Source: a virus. From it: 64,000 bases of DNA. The stretch lies in the IMG/VR virus record IMGVR_UViG_3300021061_000001. One strand, written 5' to 3'. The notes beneath the pieces were generated by a model. That model searched no databases, had not been told where the DNA came from, and worked only from the letters and a program-made list of their open reading frames with translations. This document shows, piece after piece, positions 18,897-53,392 of this stretch. Within the stretch, counting starts at the first letter, position 1; each line of letters begins with the position of its first letter. The position numbers and the translations under genes are program-made.

Positions 18897-19336
18897 GTGC
18901 CGATCGTCTCCACTTCGAGGATCATCTTGGGTCCGTCCAGGTCGTAATACTTGCTCAGGTGTTCGACCGCGATCTGCGAATCGTCCCGCCACAGCACCCC
19001 CGTCAGCGCGTCCTCGATCGCCCGCGTCAGCTTGAGCAGGTCCGGCCTGGTCGTGACCCAGTAGGGGGCGCCAACCTTGACGGCGCCCGTGCTGCGCAGA
19101 TGCGTCTTGGGGCGGGGGGCGATGAACACGATGGTTAGCTGGAGCGGTCCTTCGAGCGGGGGGCGGTCGCCGAACTCGCGCCGCACCACGTCGGCCACGG
19201 CCCGCTTCCAGTCGCGGCTTTTCGGGTTGGCGTCGGACACGGCCACACCGATGCTGCCGTCCGTGCGCGGGATCGGGAAGGCCCGCTTCGAGCCGGCCGT
19301 CTGGGGTTTGCCGCGGACGACGAAACGGTGGATCAT
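18893..19336 (-). CDS. rusA: Holliday-junction resolvase RusA
   Basis: 147 aa. GKPQTAGSKR near the N-terminus, RPDLLKLTRAIEDALTGVLWRDDSQI, and the typical RusA length and motif order. Confidence 0.9.
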   Translation of the reverse strand: MIHRFVVRGKPQTAGSKRAFPIPRTDGSIGVAVSDANPKSRDWKRAVADVVRREFGDRPPLEGPLQLTIVFIAPRPKTHLRSTGAVKVGAPYWVTTRPDLLKLTRAIEDALTGVLWRDDSQIAVEHLSKYYDLDGPKMILEVETIGT

Positions 19337-28388: not shown

Positions 28389-29041
28389 CGCACCGCCACC
28401 GTTTGCGCCTCGTAGAACTCCACGCCGGCCACCTTCGCGTCCGGCCCCAGTGCCTGCGCCAGCTTGGACAGCTTCTGCTCGTCCACCATCAGGAACTCGC
28501 GCGGCACCTGGGCCGCGTCGGTTACTCGGAAGGTCCAGCGCCGCCGGGTCACGACCCCGGCCGGCTTGGGAGGCGGAGCCGACGGCAGGACCACCGGCGC
28601 CACCACCTGGGCGGCCTGGGCCAGACGCTGCTCGCGCAATTCCGGCGTCTTGAGCTTGGCGGCCTGCTTCGCGAGCCGCTCCCGCTCCTTCCTGGCACGC
28701 TCGTCCGCCTCGGCCTGCAACCTGCGGGCCTCCTCCTGCCGCTTACGATCCTCTTCGCGCTGGTAGGTGAGCATGGCGGCTTTTACTAGCCGCTCTGCTT
28801 CGTCGAGGGGGCCAAGCAGCCCCTTCTCGGTCTGGCAGATTTCCTTGTGGGCCTCCGCCGCCCGTTTTTTCATGGGGGCGAAGAAGTCGGCGATCCGGCG
28901 GCCGAGCGATTTGACCGCCCGTAGCCGGTCGCTGACCGCCTGCATCTGGTCCGGTGACGTGATCGTGACCGCCTTGGCCCACGCCAGGACAGAGGACGAT
29001 TCGGTAGCCATCTCGGCCGGGATCTCTACGAGGTCTGGCAT
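28385..29041 (-). CDS. Coiled-coil recombination-module protein (Gp157-like, tentative)
   Basis: ATG 29041 overlaps the exonuclease stop. It has a long charged coiled coil and a C-terminal WTFRVTDAAQVPREFLMVDEQKL..GVEF pattern, as in proteins that accompany phage exonucleases (recalled). Confidence 0.6.
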   Translation of the reverse strand: MPDLVEIPAEMATESSSVLAWAKAVTITSPDQMQAVSDRLRAVKSLGRRIADFFAPMKKRAAEAHKEICQTEKGLLGPLDEAERLVKAAMLTYQREEDRKRQEEARRLQAEADERARKERERLAKQAAKLKTPELREQRLAQAAQVVAPVVLPSAPPPKPAGVVTRRRWTFRVTDAAQVPREFLMVDEQKLSKLAQALGPDAKVAGVEFYEAQTVAVR

Positions 29042-29634
29042 CACGCGCTCCTCATGTACTGCTGTTGGAAGTTCCACACTGTCAGCGCCGCCAAAAACTG
29101 CTGCTCGGCCAGCCGTAGCTCGTAGGGCGACAGCCAGAGTGTGCGGTAGCTGCCGTCCTCGCGCAGCTCCACTGCGGCCGCCCTGGCCGGCTTGCCGTGG
29201 CCGTTCTCGCACGCGAGGAGCGAGTACGCGCCGAGCTGCAATCGCACGCGCGGCTCGATCGTCGATTTGAGGTCCACCACCACCAGCCCGACCCCCGGCA
29301 CGCTCCCCAGCCTGTCGAGCGTGCCCGCGAAGCGATATGTCCGGGACGCCAAGGGCTGTTCGGCCAGGACCGGCACCAGCCCGGCCGCCGACCGGAACTC
29401 TTGCCAGGCCCGCACACGCCCAAGCACCGTTGCCGGCACGGCTGTCCAGTCCAAAAAGTTCTCGTCAAATTGCTGGCACAGTTCATGGACCAGCGTGCCG
29501 CGCTCCAGGTGGTGCGGCTCGGCCTGGAACTGCCCGGGCAGGACCGCGCGGACGACTTGCGTCACGCTGGGCAGGATCTGTCCATCGAGGGTGTAGGTGT
29601 GCCGGGATGAGTCGAATTGCAGGTCCATTCTCAA
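29041..29634 (-). CDS. PD-(D/E)XK (Cas4/RecB-like) exonuclease
   Basis: HTYTLDGQILPSVTQV at the N-terminus, then GTLDRL ... VVVDLKS (the D ... D/E-x-K core). Confidence 0.8.
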   Translation of the reverse strand: MRMDLQFDSSRHTYTLDGQILPSVTQVVRAVLPGQFQAEPHHLERGTLVHELCQQFDENFLDWTAVPATVLGRVRAWQEFRSAAGLVPVLAEQPLASRTYRFAGTLDRLGSVPGVGLVVVDLKSTIEPRVRLQLGAYSLLACENGHGKPARAAAVELREDGSYRTLWLSPYELRLAEQQFLAALTVWNFQQQYMRSA

Positions 29635-31182: not shown

Positions 31183-32130
31183 GTGTCCACGATCCGCCTT
31201 TTCTCGGGCAACCAGCCCGAACCAGCCCTCACCGTGCGCCAGGTCATCGCCGCCTACCTTGACCAGAAGGCGCTCGACCACCTCGCCGGCGCTTTCAGCC
31301 TCAAAGCCCTGGAATCGGCCCGCCATTACCTTGGCCGCTTCGCCAAGGACTTCGGCGATCTGCCCGTCAGCCAGTGCCACAAGAACGATCTGACACACTG
31401 GCTGCTCAAGCACCCGGAATGGGAATCGACCTTCACCCGCCACGATGCCGTCGGCCGCGTGGTGACGTGCTTTTACTGGGCCGAGGACGAGCTGGGCATC
31501 GTCAGCCGCTACCGCCGCCCCAAGTTCGTGGGCGCCCCCCTGCGCCCACGGCCGGCCATCGAGCCGGCCGAATACCGCGCCATGCAGCGCTATGCTCGCC
31601 GGGCCAGGAACACCCGCCGCATGCTCCGCACGCGAAACGTATTCCGTGCCGCCTTGTCCTTCCTGTGGCGGACGGGTGCCCGGCCCTGCGAGATGCGCAC
31701 CGCTCAATGGACCGAACTCGACTGGCGCCGAGAGATCATCGTCACCAAGAACAAGACCGAGAAGGCGACCGGCAAGGACCGCATGATCCCCGTCGGCTCC
31801 GTCATGCACCTCTTGCGCTGGCTCTACCGCCGCAAGAAGCCCGGTCAGACGCACATCTTCACCAACACCCTGGGAAAGCCCTGGACGGCCGACCGCTTCG
31901 CCAAGGAGTTCCGCCGCTACGCCAACCTGGCCGGCGTCCGCCAGAAGGTGAGCGCCTACTGCCTGCGCCATGGCATGTGCGTCCGGCTGCTGGAGAAGGG
32001 CGAGGGGGAGAGGCAGATAGCCGACGTGCTCGGCCACGAATCGACCCGCTACGTGAGCTGGTACGGCAGAACGACCCGGACCATGGCCGACTACCTCAAC
32101 GACGTGATTCGCCGGAAGAAGCGGCCCTGA
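31183..32130 (+). CDS. int: Tyrosine recombinase / phage integrase
   Basis: FLWRTGARPCEM (Arg I), CLRHGMCVRLL (H-x-x-R), VLGHES (His) and a YVSWY tyrosine region, in canonical order. GTG start, uncertain. Confidence 0.9.
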   Translation: MSTIRLFSGNQPEPALTVRQVIAAYLDQKALDHLAGAFSLKALESARHYLGRFAKDFGDLPVSQCHKNDLTHWLLKHPEWESTFTRHDAVGRVVTCFYWAEDELGIVSRYRRPKFVGAPLRPRPAIEPAEYRAMQRYARRARNTRRMLRTRNVFRAALSFLWRTGARPCEMRTAQWTELDWRREIIVTKNKTEKATGKDRMIPVGSVMHLLRWLYRRKKPGQTHIFTNTLGKPWTADRFAKEFRRYANLAGVRQKVSAYCLRHGMCVRLLEKGEGERQIADVLGHESTRYVSWYGRTTRTMADYLNDVIRRKKRP

Positions 32131-37722: not shown

Positions 37723-38943
37723 TTACGCCATAGCCAGCTTGTAGGCTACCTGCTTCATCTGGTCGCCGGTTCCAGCGATCGCGCTCTCGAATCGCCGCGT
37801 ACGGCGCTCGTCCAGGTCCTTCGCCTGGCGGCCAAGCGTGTTATGATCTGCGTGGTCGGTGATCGCGTTAAACGCCTTCCAGGCCGTGCCATCTTCGGCG
37901 ATCTGCTCGCGGTGATAGCGGTCGATGATGTCAGCCAGGGCGGCGCGGTGGGCTGCTTCCTTGCGGGCCAGCGCCTTTTCGGCTTCCTCCTTGGCTCGCA
38001 GGTCGTGCGCGGCCGCCAGTTCGCGTACCAGCTCGCGAGACTCCTCGATGCGCATGATCTCGTCCAGGACATTGCGGGCGTAGGGGCGGATCTCCAGGCG
38101 CTTGCTTGCCATATGGGCGGCCGCAAGGGCAAACGCCTCGTGCGCCTTGGCCGTGTTGGCAAGCGCCCTTTCGGCATTGGCAAGCTTCTGTCGCACTGAT
38201 CCGGTATGCCTGATGCTGATGCCCTTCACGCGATCGCTGATCGACGCGGTAAAAGTGTTGTTGCAGACAACGCGCACCGATGTCGGATAGCAGTAGAGCG
38301 CGCCGGACCCATCGTGCGCCATGGTCACCAGTGCGTATGCCTCGTTCCGGTCCTGCTTGCCGAAAACGAAGCATTGCTTGGGGAGCTGGGCCAACATCCA
38401 GACTTTGCGGCCGCCGTCCAGGGCCCCCGCGGTTTCATACTTCGCCCCGAAGCTTGAAAGCGCCCCGTCCAGGAGGCCGAAACCGTCCTTATTCTGGATC
38501 GGCGCATATCGGCTGCCAACCGCGCCAAGAAAAGCGCCCGTGTCCTGCCTGACGATTCCCCAAGCGTCATCCGCAATGCGAGTCTCCCCGTTGTACGTGT
38601 AGGTGAGCTGCTGCTTCACAACCTGCCAGTCCAGGGAAGCCAGGCGGATTGCATCCGCGCTCGAAACCGCTTCGCGCACGAGTACGCCGAGCCCGTGCCA
38701 TGGCAGCGTGCCGGCGGCCATGATCGCCACTCGGCCAGTGCTGTTGTCCAGCGCGTGGCAGGAGTTGTAGTAATCGTGGTTCTCGCTCACGATCTCCGGC
38801 CCGGCGCCGTTGCCAATTTCGGTAGCTTCGAGCATGGCCCGCAATTCGGCGCGGCGCTTTTCGGCGTGATCCCCCTTCGTCGATCGCAGCATTTCCAGCT
38901 CTTTTCCGAGTTGAGAAAACAGGCTAGCCCATTGCTGGCCCAT
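37723..38943 (-). CDS. DUF932-family (phage/plasmid-like TIGR03299-type) protein
   Basis: GTLPWHGLG, SRYAPIQNKD, GGRKVWMLAQL, CNNTF and IRHTGS blocks in the order typical of DUF932 (recalled). The first ATG, at 38943, was chosen over the TTG track start. Confidence 0.8.
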   Translation of the reverse strand: MGQQWASLFSQLGKELEMLRSTKGDHAEKRRAELRAMLEATEIGNGAGPEIVSENHDYYNSCHALDNSTGRVAIMAAGTLPWHGLGVLVREAVSSADAIRLASLDWQVVKQQLTYTYNGETRIADDAWGIVRQDTGAFLGAVGSRYAPIQNKDGFGLLDGALSSFGAKYETAGALDGGRKVWMLAQLPKQCFVFGKQDRNEAYALVTMAHDGSGALYCYPTSVRVVCNNTFTASISDRVKGISIRHTGSVRQKLANAERALANTAKAHEAFALAAAHMASKRLEIRPYARNVLDEIMRIEESRELVRELAAAHDLRAKEEAEKALARKEAAHRAALADIIDRYHREQIAEDGTAWKAFNAITDHADHNTLGRQAKDLDERRTRRFESAIAGTGDQMKQVAYKLAMA

Positions 38944-38982
38944 ACCATCGCCCCGCAACAGCGCGCGGGGCGTTAGTGCGGG

Positions 38983-41459: not shown

Positions 41460-41858
41460 TCATGGCTTGATCCTCCTCTTTGCTTCTTCCACCCTCTTGC
41501 GCATCCTGGCAGCGTCCTCGACGACGTGGGAATTGCTCCGCAGCCACGAATACAGGTGGCCGAACGCAAAATGGTCGCGGCGGCAGAGCGTGATGAGGTT
41601 GGCCGCGTCACATTCCAGGTCCGGCCGCTCGGCAAACGGAACAACATGGTGAACCTCGATATCGTTCGCCGTGCCGCACACCTCGCAGCGCGGGTGCTTG
41701 GCCAGGTGGGCCGCCCTCGCTTTGGTCCAGCACGCCGTTCGCGCTGTATGGCCGACTGGCGGAACTGCCTCTTCGGCGGTTGGCATGTTCATGCCGACCA
41801 GGGCGCCGATCAGCAGAGTGACCAGATAAGCCAGCGGATTGCTTCTTCGATGTGGCAC
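41460..41858 (-). CDS. HNH endonuclease with N-terminal hydrophobic segment
   Basis: CEVCGTANDIEVHHVVP ... NLITLCRRDHFAFGH is a classical HNH core. GTG start; internal ATGs are possible. Confidence 0.8.
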   Translation of the reverse strand: MPHRRSNPLAYLVTLLIGALVGMNMPTAEEAVPPVGHTARTACWTKARAAHLAKHPRCEVCGTANDIEVHHVVPFAERPDLECDAANLITLCRRDHFAFGHLYSWLRSNSHVVEDAARMRKRVEEAKRRIKP

Positions 41859-42822: not shown

Positions 42823-43971
42823 ATGGCAGACGAAGCCCCCCTGTTCCAAGCGGACACGTCGGAAGCCGCTCCCGCCAGCACCACTCCCGAACCTTCCGCG
42901 CCCGAAACACAGCCGGTCGCGGAAGCGTCTCCAGAACAACCGGCAGCGCAGCCAGCGCAGCCGTCAAGCCAGCCCGATACCGCAGCACAACAAGCCGCCC
43001 AGCCCGCCCAGCAGCCGTGGTGGTCCAGTCTGGGGGCCGACGAGTCCGCCGCGCAAGCCGCCGTCAACGGCATGCGGCAGCAGCTCGAACAGATGCGGCA
43101 ACTCGCGCCTTACGCGAACTTCGTGGCGCAGTATCCGCAGGAAGTCCAGGAGTTCATTCGGGCCCGACACCAGAAGCAGCAACCGGCCGCCGCGCCCGCC
43201 ACGGAAAAATCGTGGTACGACGGGCTGTACGAGGCCCCGGAATACGATCCGGCCTGGCTGACGATGGTGCAGAAGAACCCGACCACGGGCCTGATCGAGT
43301 CTTTGCCGGGCTACCCGGCCGAAATCGGCCTCAAAGTGCAGGCCGCCTTGCACCACCAGCAGCAAGTGCAGCGGCGTTTCCTGGAAAATCCGCCCGAGTT
43401 CATCAAGCCCTTCGCGGAGCGGATCGCCGAGCAGGTGGCCGAAAAGGTCGTGCAGCGGCACCTGGGAGGCCGCGACGAACAGCAACTTCAGCGCGACTTC
43501 ATCAACCAGAACAACGGCTGGCTCTACGAGCGCGACGACAAGGGCCAGCAGCGCATGACGCACGTCTGGGATCCCAACACCGGGCGGCAGGTGCAGACGC
43601 CGGTCCTGTCCGTGTGGGGCAAGCGCTACCGCGACCTGCTCAACGAGCGGCACGCCTACCAGATGCAGCGCTTCGGCCAGGCCGACTACCAGGATCAACT
43701 GGCGTGGGCGCTGGCGCACGTCAAGAACGAATACTACGAGTGGGCGCAGCAGCACGGCCAGCCACAGGCCGCAGCGCAGCCCGCTCCGGCACAGCCTGCC
43801 GCCGACCCGCGCAGTCCGCGCGAGAAGGCCAATGAGCAGTGGCTGGCCGGCCAGCCCAAGGCCGGTTCTCGGCCGTCCAACGGAAACACCGCACCCGCCG
43901 ATACCCCCGTGACCAACAACACGTTCGCATCCCACCTGCTGCGTGAGCTGGAAACAGCCGGCGCGGCATAG
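42823..43971 (+). CDS. Scaffolding-like protein (Gln/Ala/Pro-rich, directly upstream of capsid gene)
   Basis: ATG 42823 (MADEAPLFQ). Helical and Q-rich. Function inferred from position and composition only. Confidence 0.5.
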   Translation: MADEAPLFQADTSEAAPASTTPEPSAPETQPVAEASPEQPAAQPAQPSSQPDTAAQQAAQPAQQPWWSSLGADESAAQAAVNGMRQQLEQMRQLAPYANFVAQYPQEVQEFIRARHQKQQPAAAPATEKSWYDGLYEAPEYDPAWLTMVQKNPTTGLIESLPGYPAEIGLKVQAALHHQQQVQRRFLENPPEFIKPFAERIAEQVAEKVVQRHLGGRDEQQLQRDFINQNNGWLYERDDKGQQRMTHVWDPNTGRQVQTPVLSVWGKRYRDLLNERHAYQMQRFGQADYQDQLAWALAHVKNEYYEWAQQHGQPQAAAQPAPAQPAADPRSPREKANEQWLAGQPKAGSRPSNGNTAPADTPVTNNTFASHLLRELETAGAA

Positions 43972-43993: not shown

Positions 43994-45142
43994 ATGGACC
44001 AAGCAACGCTTCGCGCGATCAACACCACGATCGCCAAGTATTTCAAGACCGTCGAAGAGGCGGTTTTGCGCAAGCGCGTTGTCCTCGCCATGCTCATGAG
44101 CAAGGGCAATATCCACATGGGGGCCTCGGGCCTCAAGATGAACTGGAAGATCCGCTTCAGGCGCACCAGTTCGCAGCCGCTCCTGGGCGGCCAGACCCTG
44201 ACCTTCGTGCCGCGCGACCAGTGGCGCACGGCCGAACTGGGCTGGCGCGGTTTCGCCTCCACCAACTCCATCGAGGAGTTCGAGCTGGAGATGAACAAGG
44301 GCAAGGAAGCCATCGTCAACGTCTGGTCCAACGCGGCCAAGCTGCTCGCCTCGGACATCGAGCAGAACTTCGCCGACCAGCTCTACACCGACGGCGAGGC
44401 TTCCGGCCGCGAGTCGGACCTGCACGGCTTCGAGTCGATCTTCGGCACCAACGGCGTTTCGACCAAGCGCCCCATCGGCATCAACGACGATAGCTACGCC
44501 GGTGTCGCCACCGACCTGGCCTCCGAGGGTGGTTCGTGGTCCACGACCGGCACCAATACGTCGTACACCGACTGGCCCGACGGCCGCGGCGACTACCACT
44601 ACGACTTCTTCACCCCGCTCGTGGTCAACTACTCCTCCACGATCTCGACCAGCGCCGGCGCCGGCAACATCGGCTGGTCGGCCTCGACCAAGACCTGGCT
44701 CAACACCTGCATCGAGGCGCTGCGATTCGGCATCCTGGGCTGCTCCAAGAACGACGGCCCCGACGCCAAGATGGACCTCATCATCCTCGAACAGGCCATG
44801 ATGCGGGACCTCAAGAACAAGCTCCAGGCCGAGGAGCAGATCACGGTCACGAAGAACACCGGCCCGGGCAGCCCCTACGCCCTGGGCTTCACCGACACGA
44901 TCAACGTGGACGGCGTGGACTGCATGTGGGAGTACGGCGTGCCGGCCAACGTCGGCTACGGCCTGCCTTTGGGCCTCATCGAGCTGCACTCGCTCAAGCC
45001 CAAGCTGTTCAACCCCGGCGGCCCGGACTTCCGCCCCGAGGATCAGTCCTGGCGGATCTGGACCAAGTTCATGGGCAATCTCAAGTTCGGCAACGAGAAG
45101 GGCGGCGTGCGGAACTTCCTCAAGTTCGCCGCTCTCGGCTAA
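43994..45142 (+). CDS. Major capsid protein
   Basis: 382 aa, follows the scaffold-like gene. Size and sequence character are consistent with HK97-fold capsid proteins. No search was possible. Confidence 0.75.
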   Translation: MDQATLRAINTTIAKYFKTVEEAVLRKRVVLAMLMSKGNIHMGASGLKMNWKIRFRRTSSQPLLGGQTLTFVPRDQWRTAELGWRGFASTNSIEEFELEMNKGKEAIVNVWSNAAKLLASDIEQNFADQLYTDGEASGRESDLHGFESIFGTNGVSTKRPIGINDDSYAGVATDLASEGGSWSTTGTNTSYTDWPDGRGDYHYDFFTPLVVNYSSTISTSAGAGNIGWSASTKTWLNTCIEALRFGILGCSKNDGPDAKMDLIILEQAMMRDLKNKLQAEEQITVTKNTGPGSPYALGFTDTINVDGVDCMWEYGVPANVGYGLPLGLIELHSLKPKLFNPGGPDFRPEDQSWRIWTKFMGNLKFGNEKGGVRNFLKFAALG

Positions 45143-45197: not shown

Positions 45198-45818
45198 ATG
45201 AACAGTCCCTTGATGGAACGCGGCCAGACGGCATACGGCCCGACCGCGTCCATTGACACCAACGCTCTCAAGTTCGTGCACTGGGAGGGCAAGGAGTTCA
45301 CCTTCGAGGACATCGACTACAACGATGTCTCGGTGGGGACCAAGCCGCTCCGCTCCAAGGCCATGGTCAAGTGCCGCATCGTGCGGAATATGTCGAGCGC
45401 CACCCTGCTTCCCAAGCGGCTGGCGCGGCTCAAGAAGTCGGGCCTCGACATCCTATCCCGCGTGGACGGCTATGCCTGCACCACGGCGGACGGCCCGTGC
45501 TACCCCATCGACGAGTTCCTGCCCGCGGCCGGTGTGCGGCACGGCGATCTCTTTTACGTCGTCGTCGAAGGCCCGGCCATGGTGCTCACCGACATTGCCT
45601 CGGGGGCCAACAACCTGATCTCGGTCGGCGACTGGCTCGTGTCCCTGACCGGCGCCACCACCGGCGCCACCACGTCGGGCCGCGTCAAGCCGCAGGACCT
45701 CACCGGCGCCACCGCCCTGCTCGGCAACGAGATCCAGCACCGCATCGGTCGGGCGCTGTCGGCCCAGACCACGGCCAACACGGCCAACAGCCTGCTCATG
45801 AACGTGACGAAGTTCTGA
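45198..45818 (+). CDS. Capsid decoration/cement-like beta-barrel protein (tentative)
   Basis: Directly after the capsid gene. GDLFYVVVEGPAMVLTD..ISVGDWLVSL..GRV resembles the DUF2190-type pattern (recalled). Confidence 0.5.
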   Translation: MNSPLMERGQTAYGPTASIDTNALKFVHWEGKEFTFEDIDYNDVSVGTKPLRSKAMVKCRIVRNMSSATLLPKRLARLKKSGLDILSRVDGYACTTADGPCYPIDEFLPAAGVRHGDLFYVVVEGPAMVLTDIASGANNLISVGDWLVSLTGATTGATTSGRVKPQDLTGATALLGNEIQHRIGRALSAQTTANTANSLLMNVTKF

Positions 45819-45837
45819 CCCGCACTGTCGTGCGCCG

Positions 45838-45868
45838 GCCCGGTCTGGCACCTGCCAGGCCGGGCTTT
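45838..45868 (+). terminator. Hairpin / weak terminator after capsid-decoration genes
   Basis: GCCCGGTCTGGCA-cc-TGCCAGGCCGGGC (13 bp including one G-U) followed only by TTT. Confidence 0.35.
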
Positions 45869-45888
45869 CCCACACCCGAGGACTCGTC

Positions 45889-46632
45889 ATGTCGGCCACC
45901 TGTCACCCCCGCCACATCCAGATCGACTACCGCCCTGGCACCCAGGACGAAGAAGCCTTCCGCGAAGTCATGTCCGAAAACTGCTACCGCCTCCCTTCGC
46001 GGCTCCGCGCCGACGACGTGGTGGTGGACGTAGGCGCGCACATCGGCAACTTTTCCCTGGCCTGCATCCTGCGCGGTGCTGGCCGCGTCCTGGCCTTCGA
46101 GCCGGACCGGGACAACTTCCGCTATCTGACCAGCAACCTCGAGCGCTGGATCGGCGCCACCGCCCGCAACGCCGCCGTCTGGCGCAGCGACAAGATCGAA
46201 CAGGTCCATTTCACCGGCTACCCGGCGCAGAACGCCTTCCTGGACGCCGCCCCCTACGCCAACGCCTGCGGCTCGTGCATGCCGCAGGTGAACGTGAGCG
46301 GGGTCAATGAGCGCCGCCCCGTGGAATCCGTGCCCCTGGACCAGATCCTGGAAGGCATCGCGGCGGACGGCAAGCGCGTGCGGCTACTCAAACTTGACTG
46401 CGAAGGAGCCGAGTTCCCCATCCTCTACACCTCCAAGCGGCTCGATCTCGTTGACGAGATTTGCGGCGAACTGCACGATTTCGGCCTGCGCGGCCTGCCG
46501 CCGATGGTGGAGGGATTCACCGACTACGACATGGACGAGATGGCCTACTACCTGGAGGGCCAGGGCTTCGACGTGGACGTGGAGCCCAATAGCCAGAGCC
46601 GGCAAATGTTCCTGTTCTGGGCCAGGCGCTAG
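45889..46632 (+). CDS. FkbM-family SAM-dependent methyltransferase
   Basis: VVVDVGAHIGNFSL ... RVLAFEPDRDNFRYLTSNL ... LLKLDCEGAEFPIL is the Methyltransf_21/FkbM motif series. Confidence 0.85.
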   Translation: MSATCHPRHIQIDYRPGTQDEEAFREVMSENCYRLPSRLRADDVVVDVGAHIGNFSLACILRGAGRVLAFEPDRDNFRYLTSNLERWIGATARNAAVWRSDKIEQVHFTGYPAQNAFLDAAPYANACGSCMPQVNVSGVNERRPVESVPLDQILEGIAADGKRVRLLKLDCEGAEFPILYTSKRLDLVDEICGELHDFGLRGLPPMVEGFTDYDMDEMAYYLEGQGFDVDVEPNSQSRQMFLFWARR

Positions 46633-46660
46633 CCGCCACACCCTTACCCCCGAGGACACG

Positions 46661-47584
46661 ATGACCCCCGCGAAACTGAACATTCTCCTGGCCGGCTTCC
46701 CCTATGGCGGCAACGGCGCGACCAGTTCCGAGGTGCCGTGCCTGCGCCACTGGTTCGCCAAGGTGGTGGTCGCAGCCAAGAAGGACGAGCGCGTTGGCGA
46801 CATCTGGGCCATGGATTTCTCGGACACGCCCATCACGATGACCCGCAACGCGGCCGTGCTCAAGGCAAGACAACTGGGGGCCGACGTGCTGGTCATGTTC
46901 GATTCGGACCAGAAGCCCGACATGCTCCTGGGCCAGGACCCGACCGCCAAGCCCTTCTTCGAGTCCAGTTTCGACTTCCTCTACGAGCGCAAGCAGCAAG
47001 GAAAGGCGACCTCGATCTGCGCCCCTTACTGCGGCGCGCCGCCCGAGCGGGTGCCGTTCTGCTTCACCTGGACCACCGACGACCCGGACCATCCCGACGG
47101 TCACGCACGGATGCGGCTCCTGACCCGCGAGGAAGCGGCCCTGCGCATGGGCATTCACGAGGTTCCGGCTCAGCCGACCGGCCTCATCATGTTCGACATG
47201 GACCTGTTCGAGATCACCGACCCCAAGCACGAGTTCGAGCGCATGCTTCAGGCCGGTTATCCGCGGCAGATCGCTCAGGCGGTCACCAAGCCGTGGTTCT
47301 ACTACGAGTGGCCGGACATTTATGCGGCCCGCAAGGACTCGACCGAGGACGTGACGGCCACGCGCGACATGGGGCTCGCGTGCATCAACGCCCGCGGCTA
47401 CAACCCGCTCTTTTGCAACTACGACGCCTGGGCCGGGCACTGGAAGCCGGAATGCGTTGGCAAGCCCAGGCCGATCAGTGGCGATGCCGTGAACGAGAAG
47501 TACCGCACTGCGGCCCTCAAAGGCAAGCAGTCCGGCGAAAGGCTGGTGCATGTCCGTGCCAACGGACAGCTTGTGAGCGCCTAG
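46661..47584 (+). CDS. GT-A-fold glycosyltransferase-like protein
   Basis: ATG 46661. TMTRNAAVLKARQLGADVLVMFDSDQ (DxD-type motif) and a later STEDVTATRDM block, as in family-2-like glycosyltransferases (recalled). Confidence 0.6.
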   Translation: MTPAKLNILLAGFPYGGNGATSSEVPCLRHWFAKVVVAAKKDERVGDIWAMDFSDTPITMTRNAAVLKARQLGADVLVMFDSDQKPDMLLGQDPTAKPFFESSFDFLYERKQQGKATSICAPYCGAPPERVPFCFTWTTDDPDHPDGHARMRLLTREEAALRMGIHEVPAQPTGLIMFDMDLFEITDPKHEFERMLQAGYPRQIAQAVTKPWFYYEWPDIYAARKDSTEDVTATRDMGLACINARGYNPLFCNYDAWAGHWKPECVGKPRPISGDAVNEKYRTAALKGKQSGERLVHVRANGQLVSA

Positions 47585-47627: not shown

Positions 47628-47945
47628 ATGTTCGCACAGGCTCCGCCAGACTGGCTCAACAACTGGGAGCGCTTCGGCTATGGCGGCATCAGCTTCCTCA
47701 TGGCGGCCACGATGTTCTGGTTCTACGGCCGCCACTGGTTTCTGCGGCAGATCAAGCTGGCGGACATCTGCATCCGGGACAAGCGGATGTCGCGCAAGAG
47801 GCTCAGATGGGCGCACAGGCGGCTTCAAGAGGCCCTGCAAGGACTGGAAGAGGCACAGGCGGAACTGGTGGCCACCAAGGCCAAGGTGATCGAACTCGAA
47901 CTGAGGCTCAGCCATGCAGACCGTCCTGGTGATCGAGGACAGTAG
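47628..47945 (+). CDS. Membrane-anchored coiled-coil protein (105 aa)
   Basis: One hydrophobic helix (GYGGISFLMAATMFWFYG) followed by LQEALQGLEEAQAELVATKAKVIELELRL. The 3' end overlaps the receiver gene by 32 nt. Confidence 0.55.
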   Translation: MFAQAPPDWLNNWERFGYGGISFLMAATMFWFYGRHWFLRQIKLADICIRDKRMSRKRLRWAHRRLQEALQGLEEAQAELVATKAKVIELELRLSHADRPGDRGQ

Positions 47946-48345
47946 CGAACTGGCCAAATTGTGGCAGCAGACCCTACCCGGCTTCGGCTTGCATGTGAGG
48001 CTGGCCGGCTCGCTCAGGGAGGCATTCGTGGCGCTAGCAGCAGAGGTCCCCGACTGCATCGTCCTTGATCTGTGCCTGCCAAACGGTGCCGGGGTCAACT
48101 GCGTTAAGGCAGTGCGGGCCGTCGCGGCCGACACCCCGTTGATCGTGGTCACTGGCTCGATCGAGCCGGGGCTGCGGGAAAGATGCCTGGCGGCAGGCGC
48201 GGATGTGTACTTGGAAAAGCCGACCGGGGTCAAGGACATGGTGCGGGAGATCAAGGTGGCGATCGCGACGCGCAGCACGCTGGCCGAGTGCGGCCGGCAT
48301 ATCGAGTCGGCCCGGCGCGGGCTGGCCTGCACGCGAGGGATGTGA
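47914..48345 (+). CDS. Stand-alone response-regulator receiver (CheY-like) protein
   Basis: VLVIEDS (E8-D9), CIVLDLCLPNGAG (D52), LIVVTGS (T80) and DVYLEKP (K102). All canonical receiver residues are present and there is no output domain. Confidence 0.85.
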   Translation: MQTVLVIEDSSELAKLWQQTLPGFGLHVRLAGSLREAFVALAAEVPDCIVLDLCLPNGAGVNCVKAVRAVAADTPLIVVTGSIEPGLRERCLAAGADVYLEKPTGVKDMVREIKVAIATRSTLAECGRHIESARRGLACTRGM

Positions 48346-48974
48346 TGAGCGAAGAACGCCTGCATGCTCTGGAAGGCGCGTTGACGGAACTGCGTACCCG
48401 GCTGTCCGCCGTCGAAACGCATGCCGTCGAGATGGACCACCGGATCGACGTGCTGGAGGAACCCAACCCAATCGTCGTCAAGGCCAGGGGCTGGCTCGGC
48501 TGGCTGTGGGAAAACAGGCCCGAGTGGCGAACACTCCTGCCTTACCTCATCATCGCCGCCCTGCTCCTGCGCGGCGGTCAGGGCTGCGACATCCGCTGCG
48601 ACCGGCTGCCGATCCCCGACTGGGTCAATCCGATTCCTGTCCCCAAGGGGGACCTGCGCGTCGTGGTCATCTACGAGTCGGCCGATGAGCACAAACTACC
48701 GGCCGGTCAGCGCAACATCATCATGGGCCAGAAATTCCGCGACTGGGTGACGGCCCACTGCGGCAAGTCCGATGGCAGGACGGCCGACTTCCGCGCCTAC
48801 GACAAGGACACCGACACCGCCAACGATTATCCGTGGGCGCAAGAGGCCATGAAGCGGCCGCGTGCCGAACTGCCGTGGATCGTGGTCATCAAGGGAACCT
48901 CGATCGTTCACGAGGGCAAATTGCCCGCCGACCCGGACCAGGCGATTTCGCTCTTGTCGAAGTACGGAGCCTGA
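48345..48974 (+). CDS. Coiled-coil / single-TM protein with C-terminal alpha-beta domain
   Basis: The ATG overlaps the receiver stop (TGATG). It has an N-terminal coiled coil, the TM helix WRTLLPYLIIAALLL, and a ~130-aa C-domain of unknown family. Confidence 0.65.
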   Translation: MSEERLHALEGALTELRTRLSAVETHAVEMDHRIDVLEEPNPIVVKARGWLGWLWENRPEWRTLLPYLIIAALLLRGGQGCDIRCDRLPIPDWVNPIPVPKGDLRVVVIYESADEHKLPAGQRNIIMGQKFRDWVTAHCGKSDGRTADFRAYDKDTDTANDYPWAQEAMKRPRAELPWIVVIKGTSIVHEGKLPADPDQAISLLSKYGA

Positions 48975-48975
48975 G

Positions 48976-49785
48976 ATGCCCGACATCATCACCATCACCG
49001 ACGACAACTATCGTGGCTTCATCGACTCGGCCGATGACATGCCGGGCGACCACAAGGGGCTCACCCCTCGCGACTTCGCCACCTTCCCGGTCGGCCACTA
49101 CGCCAACGCTGGCCCGATCGATTTCCCCCTCTTCTCCGATGAGCAGATCGAGAAGGAGATCAGGAACCAGGAGGAGAACGGTTCCTCGCTCGAACATCTG
49201 CGAATGACTTACGACGGCGGCAAGCCGATCGACGCCCTGGACCAGAACGGGCAGGGCTATTGCTGGGCCTACTCGACGACTTCCTGCGTGACCCTGGCGC
49301 GGGCCAAGCAGGGCATGCCCTACGAGCCGCTGTCGGGGCACATGATCGGCTGCATCATCAAGAACTATCGCAACCAGGGCGGTTGGAACGCGCAATCGAT
49401 GCAGTTCGCGCAGGAGCATGGCGTGGCCTCGCAAAAGTTCTGGCCCGCCAAGTCGATGTCGCGCTCCAACGACACGCCCGAGATGCGCGAGGACGCCCGC
49501 AAGCGCCGCATTACCGAATGGTGGGACCTGTCGGACGATCCCGAGACGGTCAAGCGGCAGTTGGCGACCCTGCTCCTGCTCAACTGCCCGGTGGCGGTGG
49601 ACTTCAACTGGTGGTTGCACTCGGTCTGTGCCATCCGGCTCATGTCGTGGCGGCCGTTCAAGATCAGGATTCTCAATTCGTGGTCCAATAGCTGGTCGAA
49701 ATTGGGCATGGGCGACCTCGAAGGGGGCCGGGCCATTCCCAACGGCGCGATCGCGCCGCGCGTCATCACCGCCAAGGCGGCCTGA
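48976..49785 (+). CDS. Papain-like (C1-family-like) cysteine peptidase
   Basis: DQNGQGYCWAYS (Gln/Cys), NWWLHSVCAI (His) and ILNSWSNSWSKLGMG (Asn-Ser-Trp), in papain order. No signal peptide. Confidence 0.75.
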   Translation: MPDIITITDDNYRGFIDSADDMPGDHKGLTPRDFATFPVGHYANAGPIDFPLFSDEQIEKEIRNQEENGSSLEHLRMTYDGGKPIDALDQNGQGYCWAYSTTSCVTLARAKQGMPYEPLSGHMIGCIIKNYRNQGGWNAQSMQFAQEHGVASQKFWPAKSMSRSNDTPEMREDARKRRITEWWDLSDDPETVKRQLATLLLLNCPVAVDFNWWLHSVCAIRLMSWRPFKIRILNSWSNSWSKLGMGDLEGGRAIPNGAIAPRVITAKAA

Positions 49786-49799
49786 AAGGAAGGTGTTCC

Positions 49800-50351
49800 A
49801 TGAAGAAGTTCATCGACAACCGGCACGTCTACATCGGTCTGGGCATCTTCGCGGCTGTGCTGGTGCTGGCCATCTCGCTCGGCGCCTTCCAGTCGAAAGC
49901 CAACCCCATCCTGCCGCCGCCTCCCGTGCCGGATCAGGTGCCTGTCATCGACGACGACAAGCGACCGGACGGCTTTCTGGAACCCAAACCGGAACCCGTC
50001 AAGAAACAGGCGAGCAGCCCTTATTGTGATCCGTCCTGCTCCTGCGGATGCCAGGGGGGCGGGTCGTGCGTCTGCTACATGACCATGCGAGCCAGAGCGA
50101 TCAAGGAGGGGGCTGGTCTGGTGGTCTGGATCGGCTGCCGGCGCGGCACAGGCTACGACGATCATTTGCACTGCGAAGTGAAGTCGCTGCCTGGCTTCGA
50201 GGGGTTCAAGGGGCATGTCATCAGCTACGTCAGGAACGGCGAGTTGTGGTTCGCCAGGGCGGTGCCGCACGCGGCCATGCAGGCCCCGAGGCAACCAGTG
50301 TTCTTCCAGCCGGGCGGTGGAGTCGTGCGCATGCGCGGACGCTCGTGCTGA
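49800..50351 (+). CDS. Signal-anchored Cys-rich protein (183 aa)
   Basis: N-terminal TM (VYIGLGIFAAVLVLAISLGAF), a Pro-rich linker, and a CDPSCSCGCQGGGSCVC cluster. Confidence 0.65.
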   Translation: MKKFIDNRHVYIGLGIFAAVLVLAISLGAFQSKANPILPPPPVPDQVPVIDDDKRPDGFLEPKPEPVKKQASSPYCDPSCSCGCQGGGSCVCYMTMRARAIKEGAGLVVWIGCRRGTGYDDHLHCEVKSLPGFEGFKGHVISYVRNGELWFARAVPHAAMQAPRQPVFFQPGGGVVRMRGRSC

Positions 50352-51315: not shown

Positions 51316-51726
51316 ATGCCGAAGAAGAAGTCCGCGAGCAAACGAACCGAAGAAGCCATGCTCGTGGAGACGATGCGCGGAGCCCTCCAGACCCGCAACA
51401 CCGGCATGCTCCGCGAGATCATGGAAGAGACGATGAACCTGGCCGGCGGAACCAGGTGCTTCGCGAAGCTCTTGTGGGATGCGTACACGTCCTCTGACGC
51501 CGGGCCGCTCTTGCGGTCACGCATCCTGGACGTGTGGATGAGAGCCCTGATGGTGACCCAGCCCAAGGGCGACCCCGACAACGATCTTGGCGCACTCAGC
51601 GCCGAGGACATCGACAGGGAGATGAAGGAGTTGATCGGTGCCGTTCGATCCGAGCAAAATGCCGCCGACGCCGCCCAAGAGGACCACCACCTCGAAGGCG
51701 ACGACGACAGCGCCGAAGAAGAATAG
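51316..51726 (+). CDS. Putative small terminase subunit (position only)
   Basis: 136-aa basic-then-acidic protein immediately upstream of, and overlapping, the large terminase gene. Confidence 0.4.
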   Translation: MPKKKSASKRTEEAMLVETMRGALQTRNTGMLREIMEETMNLAGGTRCFAKLLWDAYTSSDAGPLLRSRILDVWMRALMVTQPKGDPDNDLGALSAEDIDREMKELIGAVRSEQNAADAAQEDHHLEGDDDSAEEE

Positions 51727-53392
51727 CGTGCCCGAAGCGCCGCCGCCTGGGATGCCCGAGCACAAGCTGGCCCGCTTCCGCAAGCTGCTCGTCGCTCGCG
51801 CCAAGCTGCGCATGGAAGGGCTCAAGCTGTTCGAGCCCATGCCGGTGCAGACCGCCTTCCTCTCCTCCTCCTGCCGCGAACGCATCGTCTATGGGTCCAA
51901 CCGCAGTGGCAAGACAACGGTGGCCATGGTGGACCTGGCCCGCATCCTGACCGGCCAGGACCCGCTCGGCCGCCTGCCGCGCGAGAACCTGATCTGGTAT
52001 GTGGTTGGCAAGGACGGCCGCGAGCTGGCCAACGTCGTTCACAAGAAACTGTTCATGCCCGCCTGCTTCCAGATCATCCGCGACGAACGGACCCGGCAGT
52101 GGCGAGCCTTCCGGCCTTATCAGGAGGCGGACGCCCAGAGAGAGCAGGAAGCACGCTGGGCTCCGCCCCTGATCCCGGAGCGGTTCGTCCGCGAGGTGTC
52201 GTGGGAGAACAAGAAGGAAGGGCTGCCCAAGCTGGTGAAGCTCATCAACGGCTCGGAGATCCACTTCTTCTCGGGCAACGCCCGTCCGCCACACGGCTCG
52301 TCGATTCACGGGGCGAACTTCGACGAGGAAGTGCCCGACGGCTGGTATGCCGAGATCGCGGCCCGCCTGGTGGACTACCGCGGCTACTTCACCTGGTCGG
52401 CCACGCCCGAGCAGGGCACGGACCAGCTCCTCATCCTGCACGAACGGGCGATGGGGGAGATGGAGCGGTTCATGCAGACCGGCGTCAAGCCGTCCATCGA
52501 AGAGTATTTCATGGCCATCCACGGCAACCGGCACCTGACCCGGGAGCAGGTGGAGGAGTTCGAGTCGAAGCTGACCGACGAGCAGAAGCGGGTCAAGGTC
52601 TACGGCGAGTTCCTGCAGCTTGGCGCGTCGGTGTTCCCCGAGTTCCTGCCATCGCTGCATGTCGTGGACCAGTTCCCGATCCCGCTCGACTGGACGCGCT
52701 ACCTTTACATCGACCCCGGTTATCAGGTGTGTGCGGTCCTGTTCATGGCCGTGCCCGACCCTCGCGACGAGAAGCACGCCGGTTACAGGTACGTCTACGA
52801 CGAACTGTACCTCTACAACTGCAACGCGGACCTGTTCGGCCGCAAGATGCGCGAGAAGTGCGAGGGGCAGGACTTCGAGGCGTTCCTGATCGACGAGCAC
52901 GAGGCGCGCAAGCACTCGGCCGGCGACGGCAAGACTCTGGCCTCGCAGTATTCGGAGGCCCTGAGCCGCTACAAGATTCGTTCGCGCACGACCGGCTACG
53001 GTTTCTCGCCCGGCTCGGACGATCCCAAGGCCGACGTGGCGGCCATTCGCGACTGGCTGCGTAACCGGCCCGACAAGGGGCCGATCCTGCGCGTCTTTCC
53101 CAAGGACGCCATCCCCAACTTCCACTACGAGATCACGCACTGGCGGTTCAAGAAGGACGCCAAGGGGCTGGTTACGGATGAACCCGAATCGCGCGGGCGC
53201 GTTCACCTCATGGCGGGGCTGCGCGGGCTGGTGCAGTGCGATCCGCAATGGGTCAGGCCCAAGCACATGCCGGCACCGGACGAGATCCAGCGCATCATCG
53301 CCGAGGACCGCAGGCGCGAGAAGGCCCTGTATGGCGACGGCCCCGCGGTGTTTTGCGGCCCGCGCGGCGCGCGGGTGGGGGTGGGGGCATGA
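51638..53392 (+). CDS. terL: Terminase large subunit
   Basis: Walker A YGSNRSGKTT, Walker B-like ANFDEE, and a C-terminal nuclease block YIDPGY. An alternative start at ATG 51752 would remove the overlap with the upstream gene. Confidence 0.9.
   Translation: MPFDPSKMPPTPPKRTTTSKATTTAPKKNSVPEAPPPGMPEHKLARFRKLLVARAKLRMEGLKLFEPMPVQTAFLSSSCRERIVYGSNRSGKTTVAMVDLARILTGQDPLGRLPRENLIWYVVGKDGRELANVVHKKLFMPACFQIIRDERTRQWRAFRPYQEADAQREQEARWAPPLIPERFVREVSWENKKEGLPKLVKLINGSEIHFFSGNARPPHGSSIHGANFDEEVPDGWYAEIAARLVDYRGYFTWSATPEQGTDQLLILHERAMGEMERFMQTGVKPSIEEYFMAIHGNRHLTREQVEEFESKLTDEQKRVKVYGEFLQLGASVFPEFLPSLHVVDQFPIPLDWTRYLYIDPGYQVCAVLFMAVPDPRDEKHAGYRYVYDELYLYNCNADLFGRKMREKCEGQDFEAFLIDEHEARKHSAGDGKTLASQYSEALSRYKIRSRTTGYGFSPGSDDPKADVAAIRDWLRNRPDKGPILRVFPKDAIPNFHYEITHWRFKKDAKGLVTDEPESRGRVHLMAGLRGLVQCDPQWVRPKHMPAPDEIQRIIAEDRRREKALYGDGPAVFCGPRGARVGVGA

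Follow-up and report, generated by a model that had tools for sequence, protein, structure and literature searches.

This locus raises the question of what a methyltransferase and a glycosyltransferase (GT), encoded immediately downstream of the capsid and decoration genes of a phage, act upon. The window, by which we mean the whole stretch of 64,000 nucleotides that was analyzed, comes from a temperate, podovirus-like, uncultivated phage. The features needed for the argument are the following.

42823-43971, + strand: scaffold-like protein, first in the capsid block, given for context and assigned by position only, with its start taken from the L005 gene call
43994-45142, + strand: major capsid protein (MCP) of podovirus/HK97 type (NF033394, phrog_9953)
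45198-45818, + strand: capsid decoration or head-fibre-base-like protein, 206 aa (AF2 model and Foldseek fold matches)
45837-45866, + strand: GC-rich, terminator- or attenuator-like hairpin with a perfect 13-bp stem and a 4-nt loop, followed by CTTTCCC
45889-46632, + strand: FkbM-family SAM-dependent methyltransferase, 247 aa (PF05050, TIGR01444, phrog_8156)
46661-47584, + strand: GT-A-fold glycosyltransferase of a phage-restricted family without a database model, 307 aa (predicted structure and invariant motifs)
51316-51726, + strand: small-terminase (TerS) candidate, given for context (position; directly 3' of the GT in most relatives)
51752-53392, + strand: large terminase (TerL), given for context (phrog_2 at 4.9e-14; PF03237 Terminase_6N)

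The capsid and decoration genes were found where the first-pass annotation had placed them, upstream of the two enzymes. The MCP matched NF033394 capsid_maj_Podo (1.5e-25, 90.1 bits, cut-off 80) and phrog_9953, a major head protein (6e-19). The AF2 model of the decoration protein (pLDDT 85.4, pTM 0.85) was matched by Foldseek to the N base of phi29 gp8.5 (2.8e-4), to chain G of the Pam3 capsid asymmetric unit (8.2e-4), and to the TW1 capsid-stabilising protein and the E217 decorating protein. We found 294 homologues of this protein and used it to scan viral contigs for relatives; the MCP alignment contained no sufficiently conserved stretch. No family in Pfam or PHROGs matched the scaffold-like protein, the gene for which was syntenic 5' of the MCP gene in 49 related loci. 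PF03237 Terminase_6N was also found on an identical large-terminase gene in L005, and the small-terminase candidate, which had no match in Pfam, has a homologue of ~127 aa in 84 related loci, encoded between the GT and TerL genes. Searches for tRNA genes and for relatives among GenBank phages returned none.

A hairpin had been noticed between the decoration gene and the methyltransferase gene, and we confirmed it at 45837-45866. The 80-nt stretch 45816-45895 folds at -39 kcal/mol (z = -2.5), and a strong hairpin, often with a T-tract, lies 3' of the decoration gene in 120 distinct related loci, where the median folding energy was -32 kcal/mol versus -21 kcal/mol in coding controls (Wilcoxon p about 1e-18). 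A strict terminator scan did not pick up the hairpin in the window because of its short T-run. Conserved throughout the lineage, the element stands at the end of the scaffold-capsid-decoration unit and resembles a terminator.

The assignment of the first enzyme to the FkbM methyltransferases proved correct, with scores above the curated cut-offs of both Pfam and NCBIfam. The HMM that had been suggested for checking it, PF05050 Methyltransf_21/FkbM, matched at E 6.2e-16 with 59.4 bits (cut-off 22.7) over profile positions 1-172 of 173, TIGR01444 fkbM_fam matched at E 3.3e-20 with 73 bits (cut-off 37.7), and phrog_8156 was matched at 2e-11. The class-I SAM-binding motif I (DxGAxxG) is present as VVDVGAHIGNFS at residues 45-56, and the gene is preceded by a GAGGA Shine-Dalgarno sequence. 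From its sequence the enzyme is predicted to be a sugar O-methyltransferase; we infer a sugar or hydroxyl substrate from membership in the FkbM family and from the TylF/CmcI-like methyltransferases that are fused to the GT in relatives.

The second enzyme was invisible to sequence-based searches. The mechanical open reading frame opens at 46307, and in all homologues the start is the ATG at 46661 (MTPAKLN), which has GAGGA 6 nt 5' of it. The 307-aa product matched zero Pfam families even at E<=10 and had zero matches in PHROGs, NCBIfam and the PDB sequences; a profile built from its family gave only spurious matches to PDB sequences. The Glycos_transf_2 (PF00535) match that had been expected was therefore not found, nor was a match to any other modelled GT family. 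The AF2 model (pLDDT 88.8, pTM 0.85) gave a different answer, matching GT-A-fold enzymes only, with 122 PDB and 94 BFVD matches at E<=1e-3 in Foldseek. The leading PDB matches were COLGALT1, STIV A197, ppGalNAc-T2 and LH3, and three of these (COLGALT1, ppGalNAc-T2 and LH3) are protein O-glycosyltransferases. The TM-scores are modest, at 0.3-0.54 overall and 0.32-0.44 to the protein glycosyltransferases, and the ranking of matches to a predicted model cannot by itself discriminate between acceptors.

The conserved residues fit this fold. Across 49 homologues the DxD motif, D81-S-D83, is invariant and falls just after strand 76-81; Y15, G19, D55-T-P57, R62, S227-T-E-D230 and W257-A-G-H260-x-K262 are invariant as well. 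The TED-like acidic pair E229-D230 and the C-terminal H260 are candidates for the catalytic base or a second metal ligand. A conserved Gly-rich loop, PYGGNG, follows beta-1, and its PY..N motif resembles the PxYN motif of GT2. Neither the GT nor the methyltransferase has a transmembrane segment (19-residue hydropathy maxima 0.83 and 1.42 for the GT/methyltransferase pair) or a signal peptide. By its predicted structure and conserved motifs, 46661-47584 encodes a soluble GT-A-fold enzyme with a metal- and nucleotide-sugar-binding signature (DxD, His, TED-like pair). The claim of a DxD-type GT-A enzyme was right, and it was demonstrated by structure prediction rather than by HMM: of the two kinds of evidence on which the first-pass annotation had let its GT claim stand or fall, the HMM searches gave no match and the predicted structure gave GT-A folds exclusively.

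The failure of every GT HMM could also mean that the protein has the GT-A fold but is catalytically dead, or that it is a sugar nucleotidyltransferase. Nucleotidyltransferases such as GMPPA/B, UGPase and G1P-thymidylyltransferase do turn up in the fold search, at about 5e-5 to 1e-4, and the Gly-rich loop after beta-1 would suit such an enzyme. Glycosyltransferases rank higher in both PDB and BFVD, however, and the 49 sequences, at about 50% identity, all retain DxD, TED and His, a sign of purifying selection acting on an active site of GT type. We regard a dead enzyme or nucleotidyltransferase as extremely improbable.

We found 1336 homologues of the GT. Together with the recurrence of the hairpin in the 120 loci, this number argues that the four elements of the locus did not come together by chance. 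Of the 737 clusters at 50% identity that the family profile finds, 667 are at E<=1e-10, and the GT defines a discrete, phage-restricted family for which HMM libraries have no model. It would be a new GT family, so far overlooked by such libraries, and its position within the capsid/packaging module is fixed in many phages from the environment.

The same family ties the two enzymes together. A C-terminal Methyltransf_24-like domain is present in 89 of the best 150 family representatives, and other members are fused to TylF (N- or C-terminal), to FkbM (N-terminal, in P0350) or to Methyltransf_11/23, so that at least four Pfam methyltransferase families (Methyltransf_24, TylF, FkbM and Methyltransf_11/23) are fused or adjacent to the GT. 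The fused domains show weak similarity to TylF, O-methyltransferase and rhamnosyl-O-methyltransferase. In P0350 the FkbM domain precedes the GT, the same order as in the window; we considered this domain as an ortholog of the window methyltransferase, and the two belong to the same Pfam family, with orthology not demonstrable. The gene order decoration-FkbM-GT recurs in L001, L005, L024 and L111. Because fusion or adjacency to methyltransferases of several unrelated families, some of sugar-O-methyltransferase type (TylF, FkbM), has arisen repeatedly, there is strong evidence that the GT and the methyltransferase are one glycosylate-then-O-methylate module, and the earlier view of the two enzymes as a pair is strengthened. 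Methylation is optional, since 66 of 103 GT loci have no methyltransferase inside the fetched flanks. The GT family has thus captured different methyltransferases repeatedly, and the fusions are a firm functional link that can be used, whatever the acceptor, to annotate more than 1000 "hypothetical proteins". If the GT does act on virions, the pair would also offer a compact two-enzyme system, often a single polypeptide, for methylated glycoconjugates.

The conserved gene order around the module is scaffold, capsid, decoration, hairpin, variable stretch, GT, small terminase, large terminase and portal. Essentially all of the 103 loci found via the GT place it between the decoration gene and TerS-TerL, as do 62 of the 77 found via the decoration protein, and its late-module position, from the decoration gene to the terminase genes, is kept in more than 150 loci. 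It is missing at the syntenic position in about 15 relatives that retain the capsid and decoration genes, and is for this reason an accessory gene. When the gaps in these relatives were viewed by eye for a non-homologous GT, their ORFs looked like small membrane or unknown proteins.

Within the late module the GT adjoins the terminase genes more tightly than it does the decoration gene. Its place immediately 5' of TerS-TerL in most relatives, with a usual gap of 0.45-0.8 kb, would suit an enzyme that glycosylates phage DNA just before packaging, the methyltransferase then tailoring the DNA-linked sugar. Phage GT-A enzymes with R...DxD...ED motifs are known to glycosylate 5hmC (bioRxiv 10.1101/2023.12.21.572611); they resemble the present GT in fold and in these motifs, and a TET-associated GT was the BFVD match of rank 20 (E 4e-6). 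Such DNA GTs cluster with C5-MT/5mYOX or ThyS genes (bioRxiv 10.1101/2023.12.21.572611) and lie beside DNA-metabolism genes, whereas the GT of the window lies beside capsid and terminase genes. No ThyS, TET or C5-MT-like gene was found among the 40 larger window ORFs scanned outside the capsid-GT block, the window covering all but about 4 kb of the contig, and the precomputed Pfam annotation of related loci contained no base-hydroxymethylating partner. The phage has no polymerase or nucleotide-metabolism genes, and the methyltransferases that accompany the GT belong to small-molecule and sugar O-methyltransferase families, not to the DNA methyltransferases. DNA as the acceptor is accordingly very unlikely in our judgment.

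The phage encodes a tyrosine integrase (31183-32130), and a temperate phage might use such a module to modify a host envelope glycan (LPS/O-antigen, capsule or S-layer glycoprotein) in lysogenic conversion, in superinfection exclusion or to block re-adsorption of progeny. Pairs of a GT-A enzyme and an O-methyltransferase are typical of polysaccharide loci, and L003 has an integrase and a Formyl_trans_N gene immediately 5' of its capsid block. The position of the GT argues against this, as it is part of the late structural block, is carried on the same strand as the structural genes and is 14 kb from the integrase, which belongs to another unit, and this position is constant in the more than 150 loci. 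Known conversion GTs are membrane-associated and adjoin int/att; here neither enzyme has a transmembrane segment, no flippase or GtrA-like partner is present, and a membrane-embedded GT or flippase beside int/att, as in Gtr-type lysogenic conversion, was not found. We consider an envelope acceptor distinctly unlikely.

Three observations favor virion-protein glycosylation instead: the module belongs to the late genes, the two enzymes are soluble, and the search for DNA-hypermodification partners turned up none. That the GT and the methyltransferase form one glycan-building module of this phage, with a virion surface protein as the acceptor, is a reading to which we give about an even chance. 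The GT would move a sugar from a host nucleotide-sugar to a hydroxyl acceptor, in the cytoplasm and late in infection; no genes for nucleotide-sugar synthesis were found in the window. The methyltransferase would next O-methylate the transferred sugar, producing a methyl cap. The acceptor would be a virion surface protein, most likely the adjacent decoration protein and/or the MCP, and the released particles would carry methylated O-glycans. The hairpin may hold expression of the enzymes well under the level of the structural proteins.

The decoration protein is a candidate glycan acceptor, and a T/G/A-rich segment in it had been put forward as a possible Ser/Thr-rich acceptor tail. That segment, GATTGATTSGRV, does not have the character of a variable Ser/Thr tail: it is predicted to be a loop between strands and is nearly invariant. 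Residues 150-162 of the protein make up a conserved Thr-rich loop, and residues 189-197 hold a TTANT segment. The Thr-rich loop is nearly invariant in GT-bearing phages, with degenerate versions in some of their loci. Among GT-less relatives it occurs in L170-L176 and L182 and is missing from L117 and L159/L164-169, in a comparison of decoration proteins that is confounded by phylogeny and by the search patterns. As the loop does not co-vary cleanly with the presence of the GT, it is not diagnostic and we dropped GATTGATTSGRV as evidence for the acceptor.

The module may also act on some other soluble acceptor, such as a non-capsid virion protein (tail fibre or portal), a host protein or a small molecule, and the fold alone leaves the acceptor unfixed. 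Between the decoration gene and the GT, 43 relatives encode a G/P/Q-rich protein of ~364 aa that could be a mucin-like acceptor, and a lectin-like Laminin_G_3 protein is encoded in the tail region. The G/P/Q-rich gene is missing from the window, however, and the GT carries no toxin-like or targeting domains, its fusions being almost only to methyltransferases. An acceptor of this kind seems unlikely to us.

A broader form of the virion-glycosylation reading is that this unmodelled GT-A family, usually fused to a sugar O-methyltransferase, is a dedicated capsid-glycosylation machine across a large uncultivated temperate podovirus-like lineage, with the Thr-rich loop as the attachment site. We put this forward tentatively, as something rather less than probable. 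Its hosts would possibly be Planctomycetota and other Gram-negatives. All 18 matches in the genome collection were contigs of metagenome-assembled genomes (MAGs) of mixed taxonomy, 7 of them Planctomycetota; as most carry terminase and portal genes, mis-binning of phage contigs is the probable cause. If the broader reading were true, methyl-capped virion glycosylation would be widespread well beyond the actinobacteriophages, and if the GT does glycosylate virions, phages would be using sugar coats as a general strategy.

Experimental demonstrations of virion glycosylation in phages come from the mycobacteriophages (Freeman et al. 2023, cited in PMC11600133). PMC11600133 describes cassettes in cluster O (e.g. 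Corndog) and cluster F (e.g. Che8) that hold GTs and an O-methyltransferase gene and whose soluble enzymes modify capsid and tail-tube subunits; it also reports a weaker neutralising-antibody response to glycosylated capsids in an in vitro study. These cassettes share with the present locus a phage-encoded GT with an O-methyltransferase gene in a temperate or late-gene context. They belong to siphoviruses of Actinobacteria and contain several tandem GTs of annotated families, whereas here a single GT of an unmodelled family, often fused to a methyltransferase, occurs in a podovirus-like lineage without a GenBank relative, and no acceptor tails like those of the mycobacteriophages were found.

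Members of the GT family that are fused to a methyltransferase follow the same GT-plus-methyl-cap logic as A064R/A061L of Chlorovirus PBCV-1, which take part in synthesis of the glycan on the capsid protein Vp54. In A064R a GT-A domain with DxD is fused to a further GT domain and to a class-I SAM methyltransferase that O-methylates the terminal sugar, so that the capsid glycan ends in a methyl cap (PMC9614988). PBCV-1 differs in being a eukaryotic giant virus with N-linked glycans, and A064R has three domains, two of them GTs. It has no sequence relationship to the GT described here and was not among the best 50 fold matches listed.

STIV A197 (PDB 2c0n), from an archaeal virus, is likewise a minimal viral GT-A fold with DxD; it matched the GT at E 3.6e-6 (TMt 0.62), with the highest target coverage among the 50 PDB matches listed. 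The STIV capsid protein is glycosylated. A197 differs in sequence (10% identity), in length (191 aa versus 307 aa) and in having no methyltransferase partner. The best structural match overall was A0A6J5M7M7 (BFVD, E 4.1e-11, TMq 0.53), a 788-aa protein of an uncultured phage with 14% identity to the GT; its annotation is FkbM methyltransferase, and it includes a GT-A domain, which gives it the domain pairing of the window.

On the plus strand, the stretch of the window from 42.8 to 47.6 kb holds five closely packed genes whose third-position GC is high.

42787/42823-43971, plus strand: scaffold-like protein (382-394 aa)
43994-45142, plus strand: major capsid protein (MCP)
45198-45818, plus strand: decoration-like protein (206 aa)
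45889-46632, plus strand: predicted FkbM-family methyltransferase (MT; 247 aa)
46661-47584, plus strand: predicted glycosyltransferase (GT; 307 aa)

The MCP matched NF033394 (capsid_maj_Podo) at 1.5e-25, above the curated cut-off, and phrog_9953 at 6e-19. The mechanical ORF of the GT gene opens at 46307, within the preceding MT gene. We took 46661 as the real start because all GT homologues start at MTPAKLN and because CCGAGGAC lies upstream, as it also does of 45889. For the 206-aa protein we found 294 homologues, and no annotated family. Its model (pLDDT 85.4) has a beta-rich fold, and the significant PDB matches were exclusively capsid accessory proteins: the base of the phi29 head fibre gp8.5 (2.8e-4), chain G of the cyanophage Pam3 capsid asymmetric unit (8.2e-4), the TW1 capsid-stabilising protein, the decorating proteins of E217/Pa193, T1 and FCWL1 capsid entries and, weakly, lambda gpD/SHP. 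These matches of a predicted structure support the label "decoration-like" given in the first-pass annotation.

To identify the GT we searched Pfam (E≤10), PHROGs and NCBIfam, none of which returned a match, so that the Glycos_transf_2 HMM check suggested in the first-pass annotation failed. PDB sequences gave only noise, with the single sequence as with a profile. None of 1336 homologues carried a glycosyltransferase annotation, and the named ones were "hypothetical protein" except for one fused member, "predicted O-methyltransferase YrrM". We aligned 49 homologues (approximately 50% identity to the query) and found Y15, G19, D55-T56-P57, R62, D81-S-D83, P122-Y-x-G-x-P127, T173-G174, D179, S227-T-E-D230 and W257-A-G-H260-x-K262 to be invariant. 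AlphaFold2, given the same alignment, produced a model with a core of alternating beta and alpha elements (pLDDT 88.8, pTM 0.85), and Foldseek returned 122 PDB matches at E≤1e-3. These were led by the collagen galactosyltransferase COLGALT1 (6e-7), STIV A197 (3.6e-6, target TM 0.62), ppGalNAc-T2 and related enzymes, and the LH3 glycosyltransferase domain, while sugar nucleotidyltransferases, which have the same fold, ranked lower. The best BFVD matches were GT-A proteins of uncultured phages (4e-11 to 5e-8); the first of them, 788 aa in length and annotated "Methyltransferase FkbM", is therefore an FkbM-GT fusion. In the model the DxD ends strand 76-81, the acidic pair opens helix 229-245 and the His lies in a C-terminal strand. 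In GT-A enzymes, DxD, acidic pair and His are expected at such positions in the fold. We conclude from the predicted structure that 46661-47584 encodes a GT-A glycosyltransferase, as first proposed, of a family outside current HMM libraries.

The MT is clearly, by its profile matches, a member of the FkbM family, which bears out the first reading of 45889-46632. It scored 59.4 bits against PF05050 (cut-off 22.7), covering the full profile, and 73 bits against TIGR01444 (cut-off 37.7), and it matched phrog_8156, "methyltransferase". It carries the SAM motif VVDVGAHIGNFS and has no hydrophobic segment.

Our strongest new result is the linkage of GT to methyltransferases across the family. When 1.84 billion cluster representatives were searched with a profile, we found 737 members at E≤1e-3, 667 at E≤1e-10 and 461 at E≤1e-30, which by sequence form a discrete, phage-restricted family. 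Among 103 loci fetched via the GT, 27-28 GTs had a C-terminal Methyltransf_24-like domain, and 66 loci had no methyltransferase within their flanks. The arrangement of the window, with FkbM directly ahead of the GT, was seen in 4-5 loci (L001/2, L005 and L024, with L111 from a second set), and a few, such as L113, have a separate Methyltransf_24 gene nearby. The Methyltransf_24-like domain was present in 89 of the 150 best representatives, in two copies in some, and showed weak similarity to TylF, O-methyltransferase and rhamnosyl-O-methyltransferase/CmcI. A Pfam scan of the remaining long representatives revealed TylF, the macrocin O-methyltransferase (a sugar O-methyltransferase), at the N-terminus of P0305 and the C-terminus of P0294 and P0262; Methyltransf_11/23 at the C-terminus of P0316 and P0282; and FkbM at the N-terminus of P0350, the order seen in the window. 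In P0350, the GT part has 40% identity with the window GT (4e-65), and the FkbM part shares a family with the window MT, orthology not being clear. At least four methyltransferase families have been captured independently, in both orientations, which argues for the GT product as the substrate of methylation; the kinds of family point to O-methylation of a sugar. It is very probable that the window encodes an active GT-A/O-methyltransferase module that makes a single methylated glycoconjugate.

We read gene order by locating the window proteins in the 103 GT-fetched loci (18 genomes or MAGs, 80 from IMG/VR and 5 exact-protein look-ups). Wherever flanks reached, the order was scaffold, MCP, decoration, a variable 0-3 kb, GT, a protein of approximately 127 aa, large terminase (TerL) and portal; decoration was present in 80 loci, MCP in 76, TerL in 96 and portal in 88. 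The gap from GT to TerL was 0.45-0.8 kb in more than 80 loci and contained one conserved small protein (84 loci), presumably the small terminase. The window is an exception, with approximately 4 kb inserted between GT and small-terminase candidate. When we fetched 79 more loci via the decoration protein, independently of the GT, the GT was in the same position in 62 and missing from it in about 15 (L117, L149, L159, L164-167, L169-174, L176 and L182). The GT is therefore widespread but accessory, as suits an enzyme of modification more than a factor needed for assembly.

The hairpin noted in the first-pass annotation was found where that annotation's region began. It spans 45837-45866, between the decoration and MT genes, has a perfect GC-rich stem of 13 bp and is followed by CUUUCCC. 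We surveyed the best 45-nt hairpin within 140 nt past the decoration gene in 120 distinct related loci, and the median was -32 kcal/mol versus -21 in coding controls (Wilcoxon p ~1e-18), with 88% of loci and 64% of controls at or below -20 kcal/mol. TTTT follows in many of the 120; the window hairpin has a weaker T-tract and was missed by a strict scan. A very stable GC-rich hairpin directly behind the decoration gene thus characterises the lineage as a whole. It resembles a conserved terminator that sets the capsid genes apart from those for the enzymes and for packaging, and we infer an intrinsic terminator or attenuator at the end of a highly expressed scaffold-capsid-decoration unit, beyond which the enzyme genes would be expressed at a lower level, by read-through or from their own promoter. 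A familiar parallel is T7, where T-phi follows gene 10.

For the acceptor, we give virion-protein glycosylation with methyl capping about an even chance. A virion protein is suggested by the conserved late-module position, by the solubility of both GT and MT, and by the presence of protein O-glycosyltransferases and of A197, the GT-A protein of STIV, among the top fold matches. There is also the precedent of PBCV-1 A064R/A061L, in which two GT domains, one of them GT-A, act together with a methyltransferase domain to make a methyl-capped glycan of the capsid (PMC9614988). It is highly improbable that the GT instead glycosylates phage DNA and the MT tailors the DNA-linked sugar: the GT-A enzymes with which phages glycosylate DNA are encoded in clusters with C5-MT/5mYOX or ThyS genes (bioRxiv 10.1101/2023.12.21.572611), families found neither in 40 scanned window ORFs outside the block nor in annotated relatives, and the partner methyltransferases of the GT are not DNA methyltransferases.

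Within the decoration protein, GATTGATTSGRV (residues 150-161) had been put forward as a possible Ser/Thr-rich acceptor tail. It proved not to be a variable tail: the segment belongs to a motif that hardly varies, LTAATSGATTAGRV..DLTGAT, and the model places it in a loop between strands; T151, T158, T159, G161 and T172 were invariant in 45 sequences. The motif is absent in GT-less L117 and the L159/L164-169 group, motif-like ATTxGR segments are kept in GT-less L170 and the L171-176/L182 group, and the motif is degenerate in several GT-bearing loci, a comparison confounded by phylogeny and by use of the motif itself as a search pattern for loci. The L164-L169 decoration genes (e.g. L165:6683-7417), which lack the Thr-rich loop, encode a C-terminal extension of approximately 70 aa rich in Pro/Val/Ala/Glu (PVVEPVVAPEVAPVV...), which may be an alternative surface-fibre solution.

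Neither GT nor MCP had a tblastn match in 50,697 GenBank phage records, where MT relatives were remote (23-27% identity). Matches in genome collections were MAG contigs of inconsistent taxonomy (Planctomycetota in 7 of 18); terminase and portal genes are present on most of them, ten measure 38-78 kb, and they are probably mis-binned phage genomes. Elsewhere the window encodes:

4206-5393, plus strand: sub-threshold SU10 adaptor match (24.9 bits, cut-off 27), tail region
7337-8194, plus strand: concanavalin-A-like lectin/glucanase domain protein (Laminin_G_3, 6.8e-12), tail region
18893-19336: RusA
29041-29634: PD-(D/E)XK nuclease
31183-32130, plus strand: tyrosine integrase (PF00589, 1.2e-19), embedded in the minus-strand early region
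37723-38958: DUF932
41460-41858: HNH

The window has no tRNA gene and no polymerase gene. From its set of integrase, RusA, nuclease, DUF932 and HNH, with no polymerase, we conclude that the phage is temperate. The lectin-like protein may serve in receptor binding, with a glycan as its target. Modification of the host envelope by the GT-MT module, as lysogenic conversion, is nevertheless unlikely, given that neither enzyme has a membrane segment, that there is no flippase, and that the two genes lie far from the integrase, inside the structural operon.

As a virion-modifying system, the module would work like those that glycosylate mycobacteriophage and chlorovirus capsids, but by sequence the window GT falls outside their GT families, and no test placed it in a modelled GT family. 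What is new is a discrete, phage-restricted family of predicted GT-A enzymes that keeps a constant position in the capsid/packaging module of a temperate, uncultivated lineage, and its habitual fusion to sugar O-methyltransferases. To a specialist this is a solid lead rather than a surprise; if the virion glycans are real, methyl-capped virion glycosylation would extend to a large group of environmental phages.

The variable stretch between decoration gene and GT holds other proteins. In 43 relatives (e.g. L050:8208-9299) it encodes a low-complexity G/P/Q/A-rich protein of approximately 364 aa, absent from the window and with no Pfam match, which could be a disordered head fibre or mucin-like glycan acceptor. 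In 11 loci (e.g. L040:3988-4236) a protein of approximately 83 aa follows the decoration gene; its LTGATNALTIAATNTN-type segments resemble the decoration C-terminal Thr-rich motifs, and it may therefore be a duplicated module. L003, which has a fused GT-Methyltransf_24, encodes a 150-aa protein there (L003:7525-7977) with a precomputed PF26696 PTL_trimer match, absent from a fresh Pfam scan, and its Formyl_trans_N gene (L003:3547-4386) adjoins the integrase, a short way ahead of the scaffold gene.

The approximately 4-kb insertion (47628-50351, plus strand) between GT and small terminase, which most relatives lack, encodes a small TM protein (p105), a receiver, a 209-aa protein, a peptidase and a strongly hydrophobic 183-aa TM protein.

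47914-48345, plus strand: stand-alone response-regulator receiver domain (PF00072, 9.5e-20)
48976-49785, plus strand: papain-like C1 peptidase (PF00112, 8e-7)

The block as a whole may serve lysis, with the cysteine peptidase as its endolysin. The receiver gene lies inside the late structural operon and has a homologue at the same place in L001; a phosphorylation-sensing receiver is unusual in a phage morphogenesis or lysis block.
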